The notes under the pieces were generated by a model that made no database searches, was not told the DNA's origin, and worked only from the letters and a program-made list of their open reading frames with translations. A stretch of DNA of 64,000 nucleotides from Promethearchaeota archaeon (GTDB taxonomy: Archaea; Asgardarchaeota; Thorarchaeia; Thorarchaeales; Thorarchaeaceae), in contig WJMJ01000078.1 of the NCBI GenBank assembly GCA_014728035.1, positions 64,001 through 128,000 on the forward strand. The letters are read 5' to 3'. This document shows, one piece after another, positions 24,883 through 31,311 of this stretch (positions are counted from its first letter, which is position 1; the number at the start of each line of letters is the position of its first letter). The translations under genes were made by a program, and so were the position numbers.

Positions 24883-25617
24883 CTATTTCTTCTTGAATAG
24901 TGCTATAAAAGCTACGAGTGTTATAATTGCAATAGAAGTAATTCCTAGAACTACCAACATATTTGTAGTAGTAATGGAATGTAATTCAAATTCTAGGACA
25001 AATGGCGTACCAAACGAGTAGCTTGTTTTTGCATATACAAGAACTCCAGTTGTCAAGTCATATGACAATTCTGTTTCTTGTGGTTCTCCAAACGTGGGTT
25101 CATCTTGAACATAAGTAAAGGTGATACAATTGTATTCTTTTCCGGATACTTCTACAATTTCATAACTTGATGTCATTGTGCCATTCATGAAATTCCCTGG
25201 AATTCGTTCAGCAGAAGCATATGCACTCGAGTTGAGATTTGCGATGCTAGTCTCATCAGTTTCAATAATCAGACCAGGTAAGAAGGATTCTAATCCCCAC
25301 ACCCCCAAAACAAAATCTTTTGCGATAGCAGTATCATTTGCATCAAGAGATACATTTCCAATTGTTAGTCTACCTTGAACATCTTCATGTATTTGTTGAA
25401 TTGAAAATGTAATCAAACTGTTTGGTTCTGCAATCCATGCTGTTGTTCCAACCCAGAAGAGACCAAATGCCGTATCTGGGCTATCAATTAACCTCCATGC
25501 AATCTCAGGGCTGTTAATCAAATCCGGAGAGGGTATTCCATAGTGTTCATTTTGATATGCAGTTCCCGCGAGAATAACACTCGTGACAACAAGTAGTGTT
25601 AATAGTCTTGCATTCAT
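24883..25617 (-). CDS. Secreted membrane-anchored hypothetical protein
   Basis: Signal peptide, YDLTTGVLV, C-terminal TM plus KKK. Confidence 0.7.
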   Translation of the reverse strand: MNARLLTLLVVTSVILAGTAYQNEHYGIPSPDLINSPEIAWRLIDSPDTAFGLFWVGTTAWIAEPNSLITFSIQQIHEDVQGRLTIGNVSLDANDTAIAKDFVLGVWGLESFLPGLIIETDETSIANLNSSAYASAERIPGNFMNGTMTSSYEIVEVSGKEYNCITFTYVQDEPTFGEPQETELSYDLTTGVLVYAKTSYSFGTPFVLEFELHSITTTNMLVVLGITSIAIITLVAFIALFKKK

Positions 25618-26099
25618 TCTTTATACCTTCTTGAAATAATCAGTAAAAATCCCACCCCGATTGCGCCTATAACTACAATGCCAACAAGTAGAGATGGATC
25701 CGTGGAATCTGTTGTTGGAGCATTATAGGATACAAGCTTCCATTCAACTGTATCATAGTCATCAAGAATATACTTGTTAGCTGCTATGGATCCATATTCA
25801 CCATTAATCCAATATTGCCACCACTTTCCTTCTTGACTACTTTGTGAAACTCCATCAATTGCAGTTACAAATACAAGATTACCTTCCCATTCATACTCAA
25901 CTGGCAGAACAGATTCTGTTAGATTTAACACGGTATCTGAAGACAAGTCATTGAAAGTTCTAAGAGTCCCATTACCAAAATCGACCTGCAGTGTTATTCC
26001 CAATGCAGCTTGATTGTACTCGGATGCAGATATACTAGTAGAAACTGATGTCGGACATAGAAGTAAAACAACAACCAGTAGATGCAATATCTTTTTCAT
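25614..26099 (-). CDS. DUF4430 (transcobalamin C-terminal-like) surface protein
   Basis: VDFGNG, FVTAIDGV, WWQYWING, D.VEW; signal peptide and C-terminal TM. Confidence 0.82.
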   Translation of the reverse strand: MKKILHLLVVVLLLCPTSVSTSISASEYNQAALGITLQVDFGNGTLRTFNDLSSDTVLNLTESVLPVEYEWEGNLVFVTAIDGVSQSSQEGKWWQYWINGEYGSIAANKYILDDYDTVEWKLVSYNAPTTDSTDPSLLVGIVVIGAIGVGFLLIISRRYKE

Positions 26100-26324
26100 T
26101 GACGTATCTCCATAGGATAGGATAACCTGTCCTACAACAACCCCCTCTTAAATCTGACTAAAGACCTATTCTCAATTTACAAAATCCAGCTATGAACTGA
26201 AGAAGTACAGAAACCGCCCGCAACTCCATAGGAAGATAAGATTATTTCATTATTTAAAGTAGAAAATGAGTACTAGGTAGTAGATCCAGTTATTCTTCTT
26301 GAAACTGATTTGAACTGTAATCAA

Positions 26325-26493
26325 GACAGTGACATCTGATATCGTGAATCAGCTGGGCAGAGAACTCTGCAAGGGGACCTAGCCCGTAAATAGGGCTATT
26401 AGAACGAACGAACGCGGTTTGACGCAAGTCGCTAATCGCAGTTTGTTACATGGGAGGGGTGCCCAGACAATTAAACACGTCAGATGTCATGTC
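26325..26493 (+). ncRNA. Candidate structured ncRNA (element A), family unknown
   Basis: Nested stems TGACATCTGA/TCAGATGTCA, CTGGGCA/TGCCCAG, TAGCCC/GGGCTA, AACGAAC/GTTTGTT, GCGGTT/AATCGC, and GAC-GCAA-GTC. G-U pairs and a GNRA loop favour the + strand. Confidence 0.55.
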
Positions 26494-26661
26494 ATTAGCA
26501 AATTTCTTCAGTCCCCTGAAGTCCTCTCTCACATATATTATCCGTCACAGTTGCTTAAATATTGTTTGATGCGCGTTATTTCTGACTTCACACCTAAATA
26601 CACAATATCGCATACTAGAGATTCATCTAAGACTAACCGAAGGACTAATACGTAGATACCT

Positions 26662-27336
26662 ATGCATCAAAAAATCATTGGCGGGCGAACACTTGTGGCT
26701 CAAAGAGAAAAGAAATACCCAGGACACCTTTTTGTTTTAGAAGGAATAGATGGTGCTGGTAAGACTGAAGTCTGTCATCATGTAGCTGGGCATTTATTGG
26801 AAAAAGGACTAGACGTGATAATATTACGAGAGCCCACAGATGAAAGTAAATGGGGAAAAAGAATACGTCAAAAATCTCAGAGAGGTGAATTAACCCCCTC
26901 TGAAGAACTAGAACTATTCATCAGGGATAGAGACTGGAATATTCAAAATCGATTACTTCCCGCAATGGAGAAGGGACAAATTGTTCTCATGGATCGCTAC
27001 TTTTTTGCCACAGGAGCGTACCAAAGTACTAGCACAGGAATACATTGGTCTGAAATTCTAAAGCGAAATCGTGAAGAAATAAATGCACTCGAACCGGACA
27101 TAATCTTCATTCTTGATATACCAGCCGAACAAGGTCTCTGCCGAGTAATGGGAAGGGGTTGTGAAACAAACCAGCAATTTGAAAAACTGGATCGGCTTGT
27201 TCAAGTTCGCCAAAGGTATCTTGAAATGGCAGAAAGAGATACAGGCAACTATTTTCTTATTGATGCCACACTGCCATTGGAGAAAGTAGTGGATTCAGTT
27301 CAAAATGTCATTCTTTCATTTATAAATATTCAATAA
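26662..27336 (+). CDS. tmk: Thymidylate kinase (start possibly GTG 26695)
   Basis: EGIDGAGKT, REP, MDRY, AYQ, PD..FILD. Confidence 0.94.
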   Translation: MHQKIIGGRTLVAQREKKYPGHLFVLEGIDGAGKTEVCHHVAGHLLEKGLDVIILREPTDESKWGKRIRQKSQRGELTPSEELELFIRDRDWNIQNRLLPAMEKGQIVLMDRYFFATGAYQSTSTGIHWSEILKRNREEINALEPDIIFILDIPAEQGLCRVMGRGCETNQQFEKLDRLVQVRQRYLEMAERDTGNYFLIDATLPLEKVVDSVQNVILSFINIQ

Positions 27337-27464
27337 TTTTAGGGATATTAAAAAATCCGCGGAAAGTATAGTGACAAGCTTTTTTAGTAACTCGGCAAAC
27401 ATCGCTATAGAATAGGTTGTACTTTCGTACAAGTTCAACTGAAGGGACCTGGAGAAAAACAAGA

Positions 27465-28604
27465 ATGCCTGTTGCATTAGTGCTTATCGATTGGGATTCA
27501 AAAGTCGGAGCTGTATTGAAGGCAAAGGTTCCCGCTGATTTTGCAGACTATTACAGGGAAGACCTCAACACGGAAATTATGAGAATTTTCACTTCACACG
27601 CTATGGGTGATGCAACTGCAGGATTTTCATCATTGAGTGTTAGAATCGGTGGAGAAGAATACGCTGTTGCCTCGTACTATACCGGAATTGTTAGAGAAGA
27701 AGAGCAATATTGTATCTCATTGATGTTAAACACTTCAGAAGATCCAAAATCCTATGAGGCTGCTATTACATCAATAGTGTCTCATCTCACAAATTCAGTT
27801 GCAACAATGACTGATAGTGAAGTACAAGAAGAACTTGAGAACACTTACAGACGAATCATTCGTCTTGCTGGAATGACTGACGAATCCCGTCTGGCAAGGC
27901 TGTTCGCTGATGAATTAGCAAGAGCTGTATTTCCAAAATTATGGAAGGGCGGCATCTCAAAGGAGGACTTGGAAGAATGGCTAAAGATGGTCACTGGACT
28001 TCCAAGTGTTAGTGTAGATTCTATACTTGCACCCTTTGAAGAACTTGGTCTCGTAAAAACCGAATGGGTTGATGAGATTGGTCGTACTTGTGTATTCATG
28101 ATTAAAGACCTTGAAGTATTCAGGGCACCTCCATTACTTGCCATGGAAGCAGCAGGTAAAGTTCTAGACCCAGAATTATCTGCAGAGTATAAGATGGAAG
28201 TACTGGAATTTCTACGGGAATGGAAGAAGACGCCTGAAGATACCGTATCCATAGCTGAGATTCTAGCAGATCCAGATTGTTATGACACTTTGAGTGAACT
28301 GAGAAGACGACCTCAGAACATGGTAGAATTAGAAGCAACTTTGGGAATTCCACCAAAAGAGCTAAAAGAGGCAGTTCAGACTTTGAAAAAATACAGAGTT
28401 GTTTCTGAACGTAGAAGAGAAGATGCATCAGGTGAAACAGACAAATGGATTTTCCTTCTAAACGACATTCGAGTTCGTTTGTTCTTCCCAGAATATTTCT
28501 TAGCTTCTCTACCACAAGATCTGGAAGAAAACCCGGAAGATACCAAACTTAGAGAACTAATTCATCACCATCTACGACTTCTTCGAGATAATTTCCCAAG
28601 ATAA
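27465..28604 (+). CDS. Longin/uDENN-like N-terminal domain plus tandem winged helices (NPRL2/DENN-like)
   Basis: MPVALVLIDWDSKVGAVLKAKVP opening; two wHTH-like segments in the C-terminal half. Confidence 0.6.
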   Translation: MPVALVLIDWDSKVGAVLKAKVPADFADYYREDLNTEIMRIFTSHAMGDATAGFSSLSVRIGGEEYAVASYYTGIVREEEQYCISLMLNTSEDPKSYEAAITSIVSHLTNSVATMTDSEVQEELENTYRRIIRLAGMTDESRLARLFADELARAVFPKLWKGGISKEDLEEWLKMVTGLPSVSVDSILAPFEELGLVKTEWVDEIGRTCVFMIKDLEVFRAPPLLAMEAAGKVLDPELSAEYKMEVLEFLREWKKTPEDTVSIAEILADPDCYDTLSELRRRPQNMVELEATLGIPPKELKEAVQTLKKYRVVSERRREDASGETDKWIFLLNDIRVRLFFPEYFLASLPQDLEENPEDTKLRELIHHHLRLLRDNFPR

Positions 28605-28825
28605 ACAAAGAGGCCGTTCTAATTATGGATGGCCTGTTCGTATTTTCTCGCAACAGCGGAATATACAGAGTTAATTTGCGGATTTCTCATATTGGTTAAC
28701 ATATTATTGTGATATTCGCATTACTATACTGTCTTTTTTCGGTATTCGCAGAGTTATGAGAGCCCCTTTCACTTCAAAGACACTAGAAAGCTTCTTATGC
28801 GGAAAAGTACACACTGTAATTGCCT

Positions 28826-29083
28826 TCGAGTACCCGATACTCGTGTACGGCCCCGTCTTGAACTCGCATTCACAACATTAACGGTCCCAAGAAACGAGTT
28901 CTAGCATTGGTCCCAAATAATGCAGGTCCCCCTTGCAAATACTTGCGCATAATATGTGTTTTCCGTACACGGTGAACGGGTTTCCGGACGCGGATGGTTC
29001 GCATCTGCGAGCCAATCCGGTCCCATTTGGATGAATAATCAGGATTGCTCGATACGCATTCGTTCTCGGGCCCATTGGGCCCA
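28826..29083 (-). ncRNA. Candidate structured ncRNA (element B), related to element A
   Basis: Stems CGTGTACGG/CCGTACACG, GAACTCG/CGAGTTC, GCATT/AATGC, CGCGGATG/CATCTGCG; six GG(T/G)CCC motifs; junction motifs shared with element A. Strand uncertain. Confidence 0.45.
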
Positions 29084-29104
29084 TTTCTCTTTTCAAAGAA
29101 TAAG

Positions 29105-29506
29105 TTAGGGAGAATCGAAGCTGAAACCATCTCCAAAGAATTGAGTATTGATTAGATCATTTTCTTCTTCGGTAAGCAGCTCTACCATATCAATTGCCAT
29201 GTTTGCCTCCTGTCTGAATCCAAGAATCTCATATATCCAAACAAGTTTCAACCAAGCCTCTCGGATATTTTCATCTATTTCCACAGATGTCAATAAGGCG
29301 TCTTCTGCTGCTTCGAGTTCACCTTCTTCTAGCAAGTGCTTTCCAAATTCGTACCAAATGTATGCAAATTCTGGAGACTGTCGAGTCATTTGCACAAATG
29401 CATCTTGATCGTTAATTGAATGGGGTTCGTTCAATTTCTGTGTACGTGGAACGAATGGGGAAAATTCATCTTCAAATCCAATTGGTTTTTGTCTAGCTTT
29501 ACTCAT
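29105..29506 (-). CDS. Small TPR protein
   Basis: IWYEFGKHLLEEGELEAAEDAL; AWLKLVWIYEILG. Confidence 0.7.
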   Translation of the reverse strand: MSKARQKPIGFEDEFSPFVPRTQKLNEPHSINDQDAFVQMTRQSPEFAYIWYEFGKHLLEEGELEAAEDALLTSVEIDENIREAWLKLVWIYEILGFRQEANMAIDMVELLTEEENDLINTQFFGDGFSFDSP

Positions 29507-29737
29507 AGTGAAGCATCCGAATATATCGAGGTTTAAAGACAATTATCAATTGGCCTTTAATCAAAAAACATATCTCCTTTGTTAGATTTACATCTATGGT
29601 ACAATGGGGACTCCACGAAAGTATAGGAGAAATATAAAGTTCCAGAAACAACAAAAGACGACCTATAGAGCATATTTGATATCAAGTTTGCCAAATCATT
29701 ACACTTTTTGGTTATGAAATAGTTATTACGGGCTTAA

Positions 29738-30370
29738 ATGGGGATATTGAAATCGTATGATATGAAAACTTCCTGTCTCCGAGTGATAAGAAATCAGAGT
29801 GATAATTGGGAGTATTCCCGGCCTTATGCAAATGCCTCAACTGGGAAGTTATACGAATCTGCTTCAAACCAATCATTACAGTTATCATTACGAGAAGTAG
29901 TTTTGTATGAGTTAGCCCTCAGACAGGACGAGCGAGTCATGGATATATGTGAAAAGCTATTTGACTCTGCAGATATAGATGAGTGGCTATTGGGTCTGCG
30001 TATTTTGTCTGTAATAGGAACAGAACCAGCAATGGACCGATTGGTCCAAATCTATACGGATGCAGATGTTCACGGACGAAAGCTGGCGCTAGATATCATA
30101 GCTTCAAGTGTGTCTGCTGACTTTGCTCAACCCTTTAGCATAATGGTAAGAGAATTTATTGGTTCTGAATCAATTGACGTTTCAACATGGACTTCGGTGG
30201 CAATAGCTACTCTTTACCATGTATGCAAGAGAAAAGGAATCAACGTGGAATTCTTAGGAGACCCAAACTTTCGCCCATCCATTACAGGTTTTGAAGTGAG
30301 CTCAACAAAAGAACAGTCTACTGATCGATTAAAGAAAACACGATTGGTGGCAATTTCAAAAGAGAACTAA
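29738..30370 (+). CDS. HEAT-repeat-like hypothetical protein (start uncertain)
   Basis: LSVIGTEPAMDRLV HEAT-like segment. Confidence 0.55.
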   Translation: MGILKSYDMKTSCLRVIRNQSDNWEYSRPYANASTGKLYESASNQSLQLSLREVVLYELALRQDERVMDICEKLFDSADIDEWLLGLRILSVIGTEPAMDRLVQIYTDADVHGRKLALDIIASSVSADFAQPFSIMVREFIGSESIDVSTWTSVAIATLYHVCKRKGINVEFLGDPNFRPSITGFEVSSTKEQSTDRLKKTRLVAISKEN

Positions 30371-31311
30371 TTCTCTAACAGATCCAACTCATATCGAATG
30401 CGTCTGTATCGCTCAGTATATCCTAGTTTAAGATATAGCTGACGAGCAGCTTCTTCATCATCAATTACTACAAGGTCAGAACGGGAATACCCTTTCGTTT
30501 TTGCTCTATTCAGCAATTCCAGCAAAATAGCAAGACCATAGCCTTTTCGACGATGAGTTCCCTTTGTGCCAACACCATCAATAATCAGACGGGCATCATC
30601 TTTTGTTGAAGATGCCAACTTGGTACCTAATACATATACAACAGGTTTACCATCAACGTAGCCAAAAAGTGCAAAGTCCGAAACAAATCGATCTGATGTA
30701 CTAAATTTCATTAGTGTTTCAGATGTTACAGGGTTGTATCCAATTTTATCACTAAATATCTCATTTTGAAGATCAGCCCATATTGAGCCATCTTCAGAGG
30801 GATGAATTTCGCGAATAGTCAATTCCGGGGGTGTTGCTCTTACTGGTATTGCACCAATATCAAAGTTGGACATCTTAATCCAGGCCTTGACTGGTTCCAT
30901 ACCTCGTTTCTCTGCAAATTCTATTGCAGAAGGCCTGAAATCCGGGATATAGCTCACGACTTTCTGTGCTCTTTGGGATTTTGCTTTTCTAATGAGCTCA
31001 TTAAAGATAGTGGACCCCACACCTAGTTTTCTAAAATCCGGATGCACTTTCAGTGCTATGCGAGAAACTGGCGATTCCTGTTCAATTGATTTGAATACCG
31101 TGCCATATCCTACATAACCAGCTCCTGATATTCGTACTAGAATGACATTGTCTTCAACATCTACTCCGGGAGTTTGGTATCCAGCTCGATAGTATTCGCC
31201 ATCAAGATCTACGTGATCAGGATTATCTCTGGAACTCACAGCATTGTATATTCGAGCTATTTCGTCACAATGGTCAAGTTTTCCAGGTTCAATACTGATA
31301 TCTGAATTCAA
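30367..31311 (-). CDS. Tandem GNAT acetyltransferase (MshD-like architecture)
   Basis: VHPDFRKLGVG and HRRKGYG acetyl-CoA motifs; ARQLYLKLGY. Confidence 0.9.
   Translation of the reverse strand: MNSDISIEPGKLDHCDEIARIYNAVSSRDNPDHVDLDGEYYRAGYQTPGVDVEDNVILVRISGAGYVGYGTVFKSIEQESPVSRIALKVHPDFRKLGVGSTIFNELIRKAKSQRAQKVVSYIPDFRPSAIEFAEKRGMEPVKAWIKMSNFDIGAIPVRATPPELTIREIHPSEDGSIWADLQNEIFSDKIGYNPVTSETLMKFSTSDRFVSDFALFGYVDGKPVVYVLGTKLASSTKDDARLIIDGVGTKGTHRRKGYGLAILLELLNRAKTKGYSRSDLVVIDDEEAARQLYLKLGYTERYRRIRYELDLLEN

Follow-up and report, generated by a model that had tools for sequence, protein, structure and literature searches.

We have found two families of structured RNAs, A and B, in intergenic gaps of a Thorarchaeota genome of 4.3 Mb, which we have compared with its Thorarchaeota relatives. 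Both are conserved and both have covarying stems. The most conserved unpaired parts of B, according to the alignment and the predicted pairing, are two or three C-rich GGUCCC motifs, and their complement is conserved in the leader of the adjacent gene. We suggest that B is a base-pairing small RNA of the RsaE/RoxS type, predicted to act on the mRNA of a longin-winged-helix protein, and that A is its sibling. The chances of this reading, which comes from comparing genomes, appear to us about even.

The window, i.e., the whole stretch of 64,000 nt analysed here, contains a group of genes coding for DUF4443 winged-helix, S-component-like, hypothetical and DUF4430 proteins, all on the minus strand, then a gap with A and the tmk gene on the plus strand. 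The plus-strand gene of the 379-aa longin protein comes next, followed by a gap with B and a TPR-like gene on the minus strand. The DUF4430 assignment has been confirmed. Homologous loci were gathered with the 379-aa gene as anchor, about 50 in all. In most relatives a longin-Arf GTPase gene is found directly after B, and in this genus TPR-like, HEAT-like and GNAT genes (29105-31311) lie between them. The region 3' of the longin stop codon (28611-28760) contains an imperfect, AT-rich rod and a hairpin resembling a terminator, and (T)GCGAA repeats recur at the matching region in relatives. The features of both RNAs and of the predicted target are shown in Table 1.

Table 1. Features of RNAs A and B and of the predicted target gene in the window.
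Feature	Position	Strand	Remarks
RNA B, ~270 nt	28822..29092 (about 28822-29090)	+	model R1, 105 bits; covariation; fold z -3.8
Putative BRE/TATA-like promoter of B	28785..28799	+	equivalent box 5' of B in 44/47 genomes
Closing stem of B, long	28840-28850 with 28963-28973	+	encloses multiloop (P2, variable P3); further hairpins on 3' side
Seed 1 of B, GGUCCC in P2 loop	28883..28888	+	nearly invariant (alignment A3); mostly unpaired (predicted)
Seed 2 of B, GGUCCC in P2/P3 junction	28909..28914	+	alignment, predicted pairing
Seed 3 of B, P3 hairpin; motif common to A and B	28923..28936	+	perfect 8-nt complement of 27444-27451
Probable terminator of B, GC hairpin and U-tract	29068..29092	+	U-tracts 3' of B in relatives too
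RNA A, ~205 nt	26326..26530	-	model R3, 138 bits; 5' leader rich in G, then long closing rod and multiloop head
Core motif of A, GGUCCCCUUGCA	26368..26379	-	nearly invariant; sense identical to B seeds
5' hairpin of A, GGGA loop	26506..26521	-	GGGGAC pairable with A core (8-11 bp) or B seeds
Putative BRE/TATA-like promoter of A	26553..26564	-	AT-rich box 30-45 nt 5' of G-rich motif, 5 genera
Predicted target gene, 379-aa longin + winged helices	27465..28604	+	GATOR1/NPRL2-like fold, residues 1-137
Predicted target site, GGGACC adjoining Shine-Dalgarno GGAG (27451-27454) on its 5' side	27444..27454	+	longin gene leader

A first-pass annotation had listed nine parts in one order, both in A read on the plus strand (26325-26493) and in 28842-28971 read as reverse complement, and had taken them for two functional RNAs of Asgard lineage. 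This order is indeed present, and homologs with covariation are found in relatives for both elements. The stems are real, except for a short hairpin of B, which is not a conserved helix in its family. Both elements lie where they had been placed, but the limits given were too short: A has an additional 5' hairpin, and B is considerably longer.

B is found downstream of the 379-aa gene in 47 genomes of 14 genera. Searching with model R1 detects a single copy in 24 of the 26 genomes of the family and gives no match in 124 Asgard genomes outside it. All ten pairs of the closing stem show two-sided changes, and none of 500 shuffles reaches the observed double-change counts; related sequences inflate this count, and slid controls are far lower. 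B stays in place where the neighbouring genes change. Beyond Thorarchaeota, a search with a strict pattern of B gave only archaeal matches, from Thorarchaeota wherever a name was given, and two looser patterns outside Thorarchaeota mostly gave chance matches. No viral copies of the elements were found.

B is almost certainly encoded on the plus strand. Strand-neutral helix counts favour G.U over A.C by 163:45 for this strand (111:31 and 52:14), UUCG loops are found 14:0, and a promoter-like box is present on the plus side in 44 of the 47 genomes, compared with 4 of 47 on the minus side. This box resembles the one upstream of the RNase P and SRP genes in the same genome. In some loci a convergent gene abuts the 3' end of B, so its promoter would have nothing else to drive. 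A comparison of the minimum free energies of the two strands showed no preference (24/47). B would therefore be a stand-alone, independently transcribed small RNA, with its own promoter-like box and a probable terminator; its 5' end has been placed from the promoter spacing.

The distribution of A is narrower: 22 of 101 genomes and 6 of 16 genera. Their scattered positions on the tree suggest that A was lost repeatedly. A metagenome scan gave five more copies, other matches being due to chance. Two-sided changes are present in 15 of 28 pairs, and 0 of 500 shuffles reach the observed double-change counts. A carries one seed in its head, and the GGGGA(C/U) of its leader is kept 134–173 nt 5' of the core in 19 of 22 genomes. 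An AT-rich promoter-like box is found at a fixed distance before the G-rich motif on the minus strand, also in 19 of 22 genomes. The wobble count of the alignment is 33:7 (G.U vs A.C) for the minus-strand fold, a fold which was itself predicted on that strand; the strand-neutral count is even. A is very probably encoded on the minus strand, and we infer both of its ends.

These strands are the opposite of those proposed at first, A plus and B minus. With such strands the RNAs would display GGGAC like the mRNA leader and might titrate a repressor protein, as CsrB does. In fact, the motifs of B on the minus strand are identical, and in the same sense, to the leader site, GCAA loops are found in A on the plus strand, and the even strand-neutral count would fit as well. 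This is nevertheless very improbable, given the wobble, UUCG loops, promoter and terminator of B and the promoter-like box and alignment wobble of A. On the likely strands the RNAs do not display GGGGACC junctions; they show C-rich GGUCCC instead.

The position of A suggests another explanation: It could be a riboswitch-like leader of the DUF4430/S-component-like/DUF4443 operon, possibly involved in vitamin uptake, with a switch between GGGGAC and the core, B being a separate RNA. A on the minus strand is upstream of the operon and in line with it wherever the context is seen, and alternative pairings of its core exist. However, the operon possesses a TATA box of its own and a palindromic operator, whether or not the genome contains A. 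In the window A ends about 170 nt before the operon promoter, with a U-rich tract in between. A is also kept in two genomes (G023 and G040) where the transporter genes are deleted, and the cobalamin riboswitch model gives no match. We consider this explanation unlikely, and we have found no support for the ribozyme or riboswitch role which had been suggested.

Several observations concern A and its surroundings. The palindromic operator (TAGG...CCTA, 17 bp, 26118-26134) lies over the start of the DUF4430 operon and is conserved throughout the family genomes seen. The genome has six further exact matches and several near ones, which suggest a regulon, for which the DUF4443 gene product is a candidate regulator; the palindrome resembles DtxR-type boxes. 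In loci L174, L176 and L290 (genomes G023, G040 and G008) the DUF4430, hypothetical and S-component genes are deleted, so that A, the operator and DUF4443 are now adjacent. In L188 (G009), near position 2700, the 3' half of A on the plus strand is broken by an apparent transposase-like insertion. A sister-family genome (G061) has an A-like remnant upstream of the longin gene (L187:2940-3020), recognized by eye, to which R3 gives no score; neither B nor the leader site is present at its longin locus.

A and B are probably paralogous, as had been proposed, and the main ground for this is one 12-nt motif. A motif of 12–13 nt common to both occurs nowhere else in the 4.3-Mb genome. The likeness in the pairwise alignment is limited to this motif: The score is 21, compared with a mean of 15.4 for shuffled sequences, but 53 of 2000 shuffles score as high, and the motif alone accounts for it. 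Model R1 does not find A. Model R3 misses the B of the window and finds B in genus g12 (E 0.006 and 0.009) and, with E 0.4, in g7. The g12 copies are its best non-self matches in 93 kb, in the same sense and with 16/17 identity over the core motif. If A is on the minus strand and B on the plus strand, the shared motif has one sense in both RNAs, C-rich. Since the full motif in B is independent of the presence of A across genomes, common descent is favoured over antisense pairing. No further paralogs were found in this genome; four weak model matches in other genomes were rejected, being in coding sequence or false.

Neither element belongs to a family we could recognize. Rfam 15 gives no match at the gathering threshold in the window and none at E<=10 over 25500-30000, and nothing at a meaningful score over the elements in ten homologous loci. 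The RsaE and RoxS models are also unmatched. Archaeal RNase P, SRP and 5S RNAs are all encoded on other contigs, in agreement with the early view that the elements are neither SRP nor RNase P. HDV-like and hairpin ribozymes, c-di-AMP and cobalamin riboswitches, T-box, tmRNA, attC and origin boxes were compared by eye and dropped.

A role of B as a guide or chaperone of rRNA, or as a ribozyme, has also been considered. B here has complements of 13, 12 and 10 nt to 23S (H82/83 and H38 regions) and 5S rRNA, and GGGGACC is present in most 16S rRNAs of the family. On the other hand, the 5S and H38 complements are confined to this genus and B does not follow the changes in 23S. No bias towards the own genus is seen for the 16S site (p 0.49), which this genus lacks. 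The invariant boxes of C/D or H/ACA RNAs are absent from the A and B alignments, as is a covarying rRNA complement, and ribozyme models are unmatched. Such a role is most unlikely. Apart from this, 16S genes in the family are often lengthened or split (L456, L461, L465, L466 and L210, 1640–2400 nt), with breaks near model positions 828 and 1344, which suggests rRNA introns.

We now return to B as a base-pairing RNA. Its predicted target gene starts at ATG 27465, according to conservation, Shine-Dalgarno sequence and promoter, whereas the list of open reading frames had TTG 27417. The AlphaFold model of the protein (pLDDT 94) matches a GATOR1 chain (VIA: Z 12.3, rmsd 2.5, 125 aligned) and a Loki longin (Z 12.6); the protein resembles eukaryotic regulators of GTPases. 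For longin GTPase-regulator modules, a relation to GATOR1/folliculin of eukaryotes has been described (PMC12290439).

GGGAC(C/U) is found beside the Shine-Dalgarno sequence in 35 of 47 leaders, from 11 of 14 genera (27444-27449 in the window). Its background frequency is 0.8%, and the leaders of six neighbouring genes contain it in 0–3 of 8–44 cases. The 16S tail is an ordinary anti-Shine-Dalgarno sequence, which excludes that the site is an extended Shine-Dalgarno. Duplexes between B and the leader are more stable within a genus than across genera (genus-level permutation, p 0.003–0.049 in seven windows), with the proviso that accessibility is not taken into account by RNAduplex, nor the tree between genera by the permutation. 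Control segments, 15 coding and 5 other, give p 0.07–0.87. A contiguous-helix version of the own-genus test is not significant (p 0.18). The seed variant AGUCCC is only found in a subclade of g6 and in g9, which are not sisters on the tree, and both have a GGGACU site.

Seed matches are short, only 6–9 bp, including the perfect 8-bp match of seed 3, and the GG of seeds 2 and 3 is partly paired in the computed fold. In g5, g12 and g13 the seeds of B are kept and the leader site is absent; a search of five genomes of this kind gave no shared substitute target. The conserved non-seed junctions of B (CCCCGUC, UUGCGCA and GGAUGCGG) are not accounted for by seed pairing.

In the mechanism we propose, B would have a rigid multibranch scaffold, whose loops and junctions present two or three GGUCCC seeds for pairing with GGGAC(C/U) beside the Shine-Dalgarno sequence in the mRNA of the longin-winged-helix protein; other mRNAs would probably be bound as well. 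Pairing would alter translation of the longin protein, most likely by blocking ribosome entry. The leader is often predicted to fold over its own Shine-Dalgarno, so activation is possible; repression is the default because of the position of the site, and folding does not decide between them. A may be a sibling of B, older or arisen by duplication, that shares its seed and has a G-rich 5' leader which would either fold back on the seed of A, as a switch, or soak up B, as a sponge. The complement of this G-rich region to the B seeds is present in all cases, with an unstable own-genus bias. The permutation for pairing of the A leader is likewise unstable (p 0.02–0.57), some controls being equally low. 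In genus g3 a C-to-U change in the A leader is matched in B by an AUCCCC motif. A three-part circuit is a tentative extension which may well be wrong: The level of a GATOR1/NPRL2-like longin protein, whose gene lies next to that of a longin-Arf GTPase, would be set by the family-wide B, and the duplicated A, with its self-masking or sponging G-rich leader, would tune it.

Persistence of B with intact seeds in genera without the leader site suggests a different explanation, in which A and B serve a putative protein with affinity for C-rich loops (KH- or Lsm-type) as scaffold or sponge, and something else binds the leader site. The repeated loop motifs, the many conserved non-seed junction bases of B, and its presence as a single copy in nearly all the family would agree with it. 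However, the exact complement in the neighbouring gene, the own-genus bias and the matched changes of seed and site are left without explanation. We regard it as a doubtful alternative to base pairing, although one to be taken into account.

Some known RNAs share features with A and B. RaiA and OLE are orphan stand-alone structured RNAs: They are single-copy, with their own promoter and conserved junction bases, and lineage-wide. B is similar in all these features, its promoter being a promoter-like box, but has no Rfam match and has a candidate base-pairing target. RsaE has unpaired UCCC seeds; RsaE/RoxS and the RNAIII loops are C-rich-motif sRNAs of Firmicutes (PMC2790875). B is also stand-alone, with several conserved unpaired UCCC-containing seeds in its predicted fold. 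Its predicted pairing is also with a G-rich stretch at a ribosome-binding site, a complement conserved in the leaders counted above and missing in three genera. Unlike RsaE/RoxS, B is archaeal, has a nested multibranch scaffold of about 270 nt and matches neither in sequence nor by model; its seed reads the hexamer beside the Shine-Dalgarno, not the Shine-Dalgarno itself, and its target is the adjacent gene. RosA of B. subtilis is a G-rich sponge sRNA and RsaI of S. aureus is dual (PMC8216469). The G-rich stretch of A complements C-rich seeds as in both of them, and like RsaI it has a C-rich stretch as well. In contrast to them, A is apparently related to its putative partner, and its G-rich leader may pair within A. 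In archaea, the intergenic sRNA162 of Methanosarcina mazei masks the site of ribosome binding on a target mRNA (PMC3510493). B is predicted to do the same, although sRNA162 uses one long single-stranded linker and B repeated short seeds, and sequence and lineage are unrelated.

Our literature search found no report of elements A or B. To our knowledge, almost nothing is known about regulatory RNAs of Asgard archaea beyond rRNA, tRNA and SECIS. Conservation across a whole family is rare among sRNAs. B has it, and offers a seed of 6–9 nt, a named predicted site and natural compensating variants. If our reading is correct, post-transcriptional control would be tied to the longin GTPase-regulator module related to GATOR1/folliculin. 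The circuit, if true, would be based on a new RNA fold and would give the first case in Asgard archaea of a eukaryotic-signature signalling module controlled at the RNA level. Should the target prove wrong, A and B still represent two new families of Rfam grade, with B as a marker of the family.

Two minor observations concern tRNA genes. In contig C26 (11286-25121), 13 clustered tRNA genes have phage-like leaders and anticodons that are also present elsewhere; the contig may correspond to a virus, a plasmid or a contaminant. In contig C51 (15308-15405), ARAGORN calls a tRNA with a CUA anticodon (Pyl-type).
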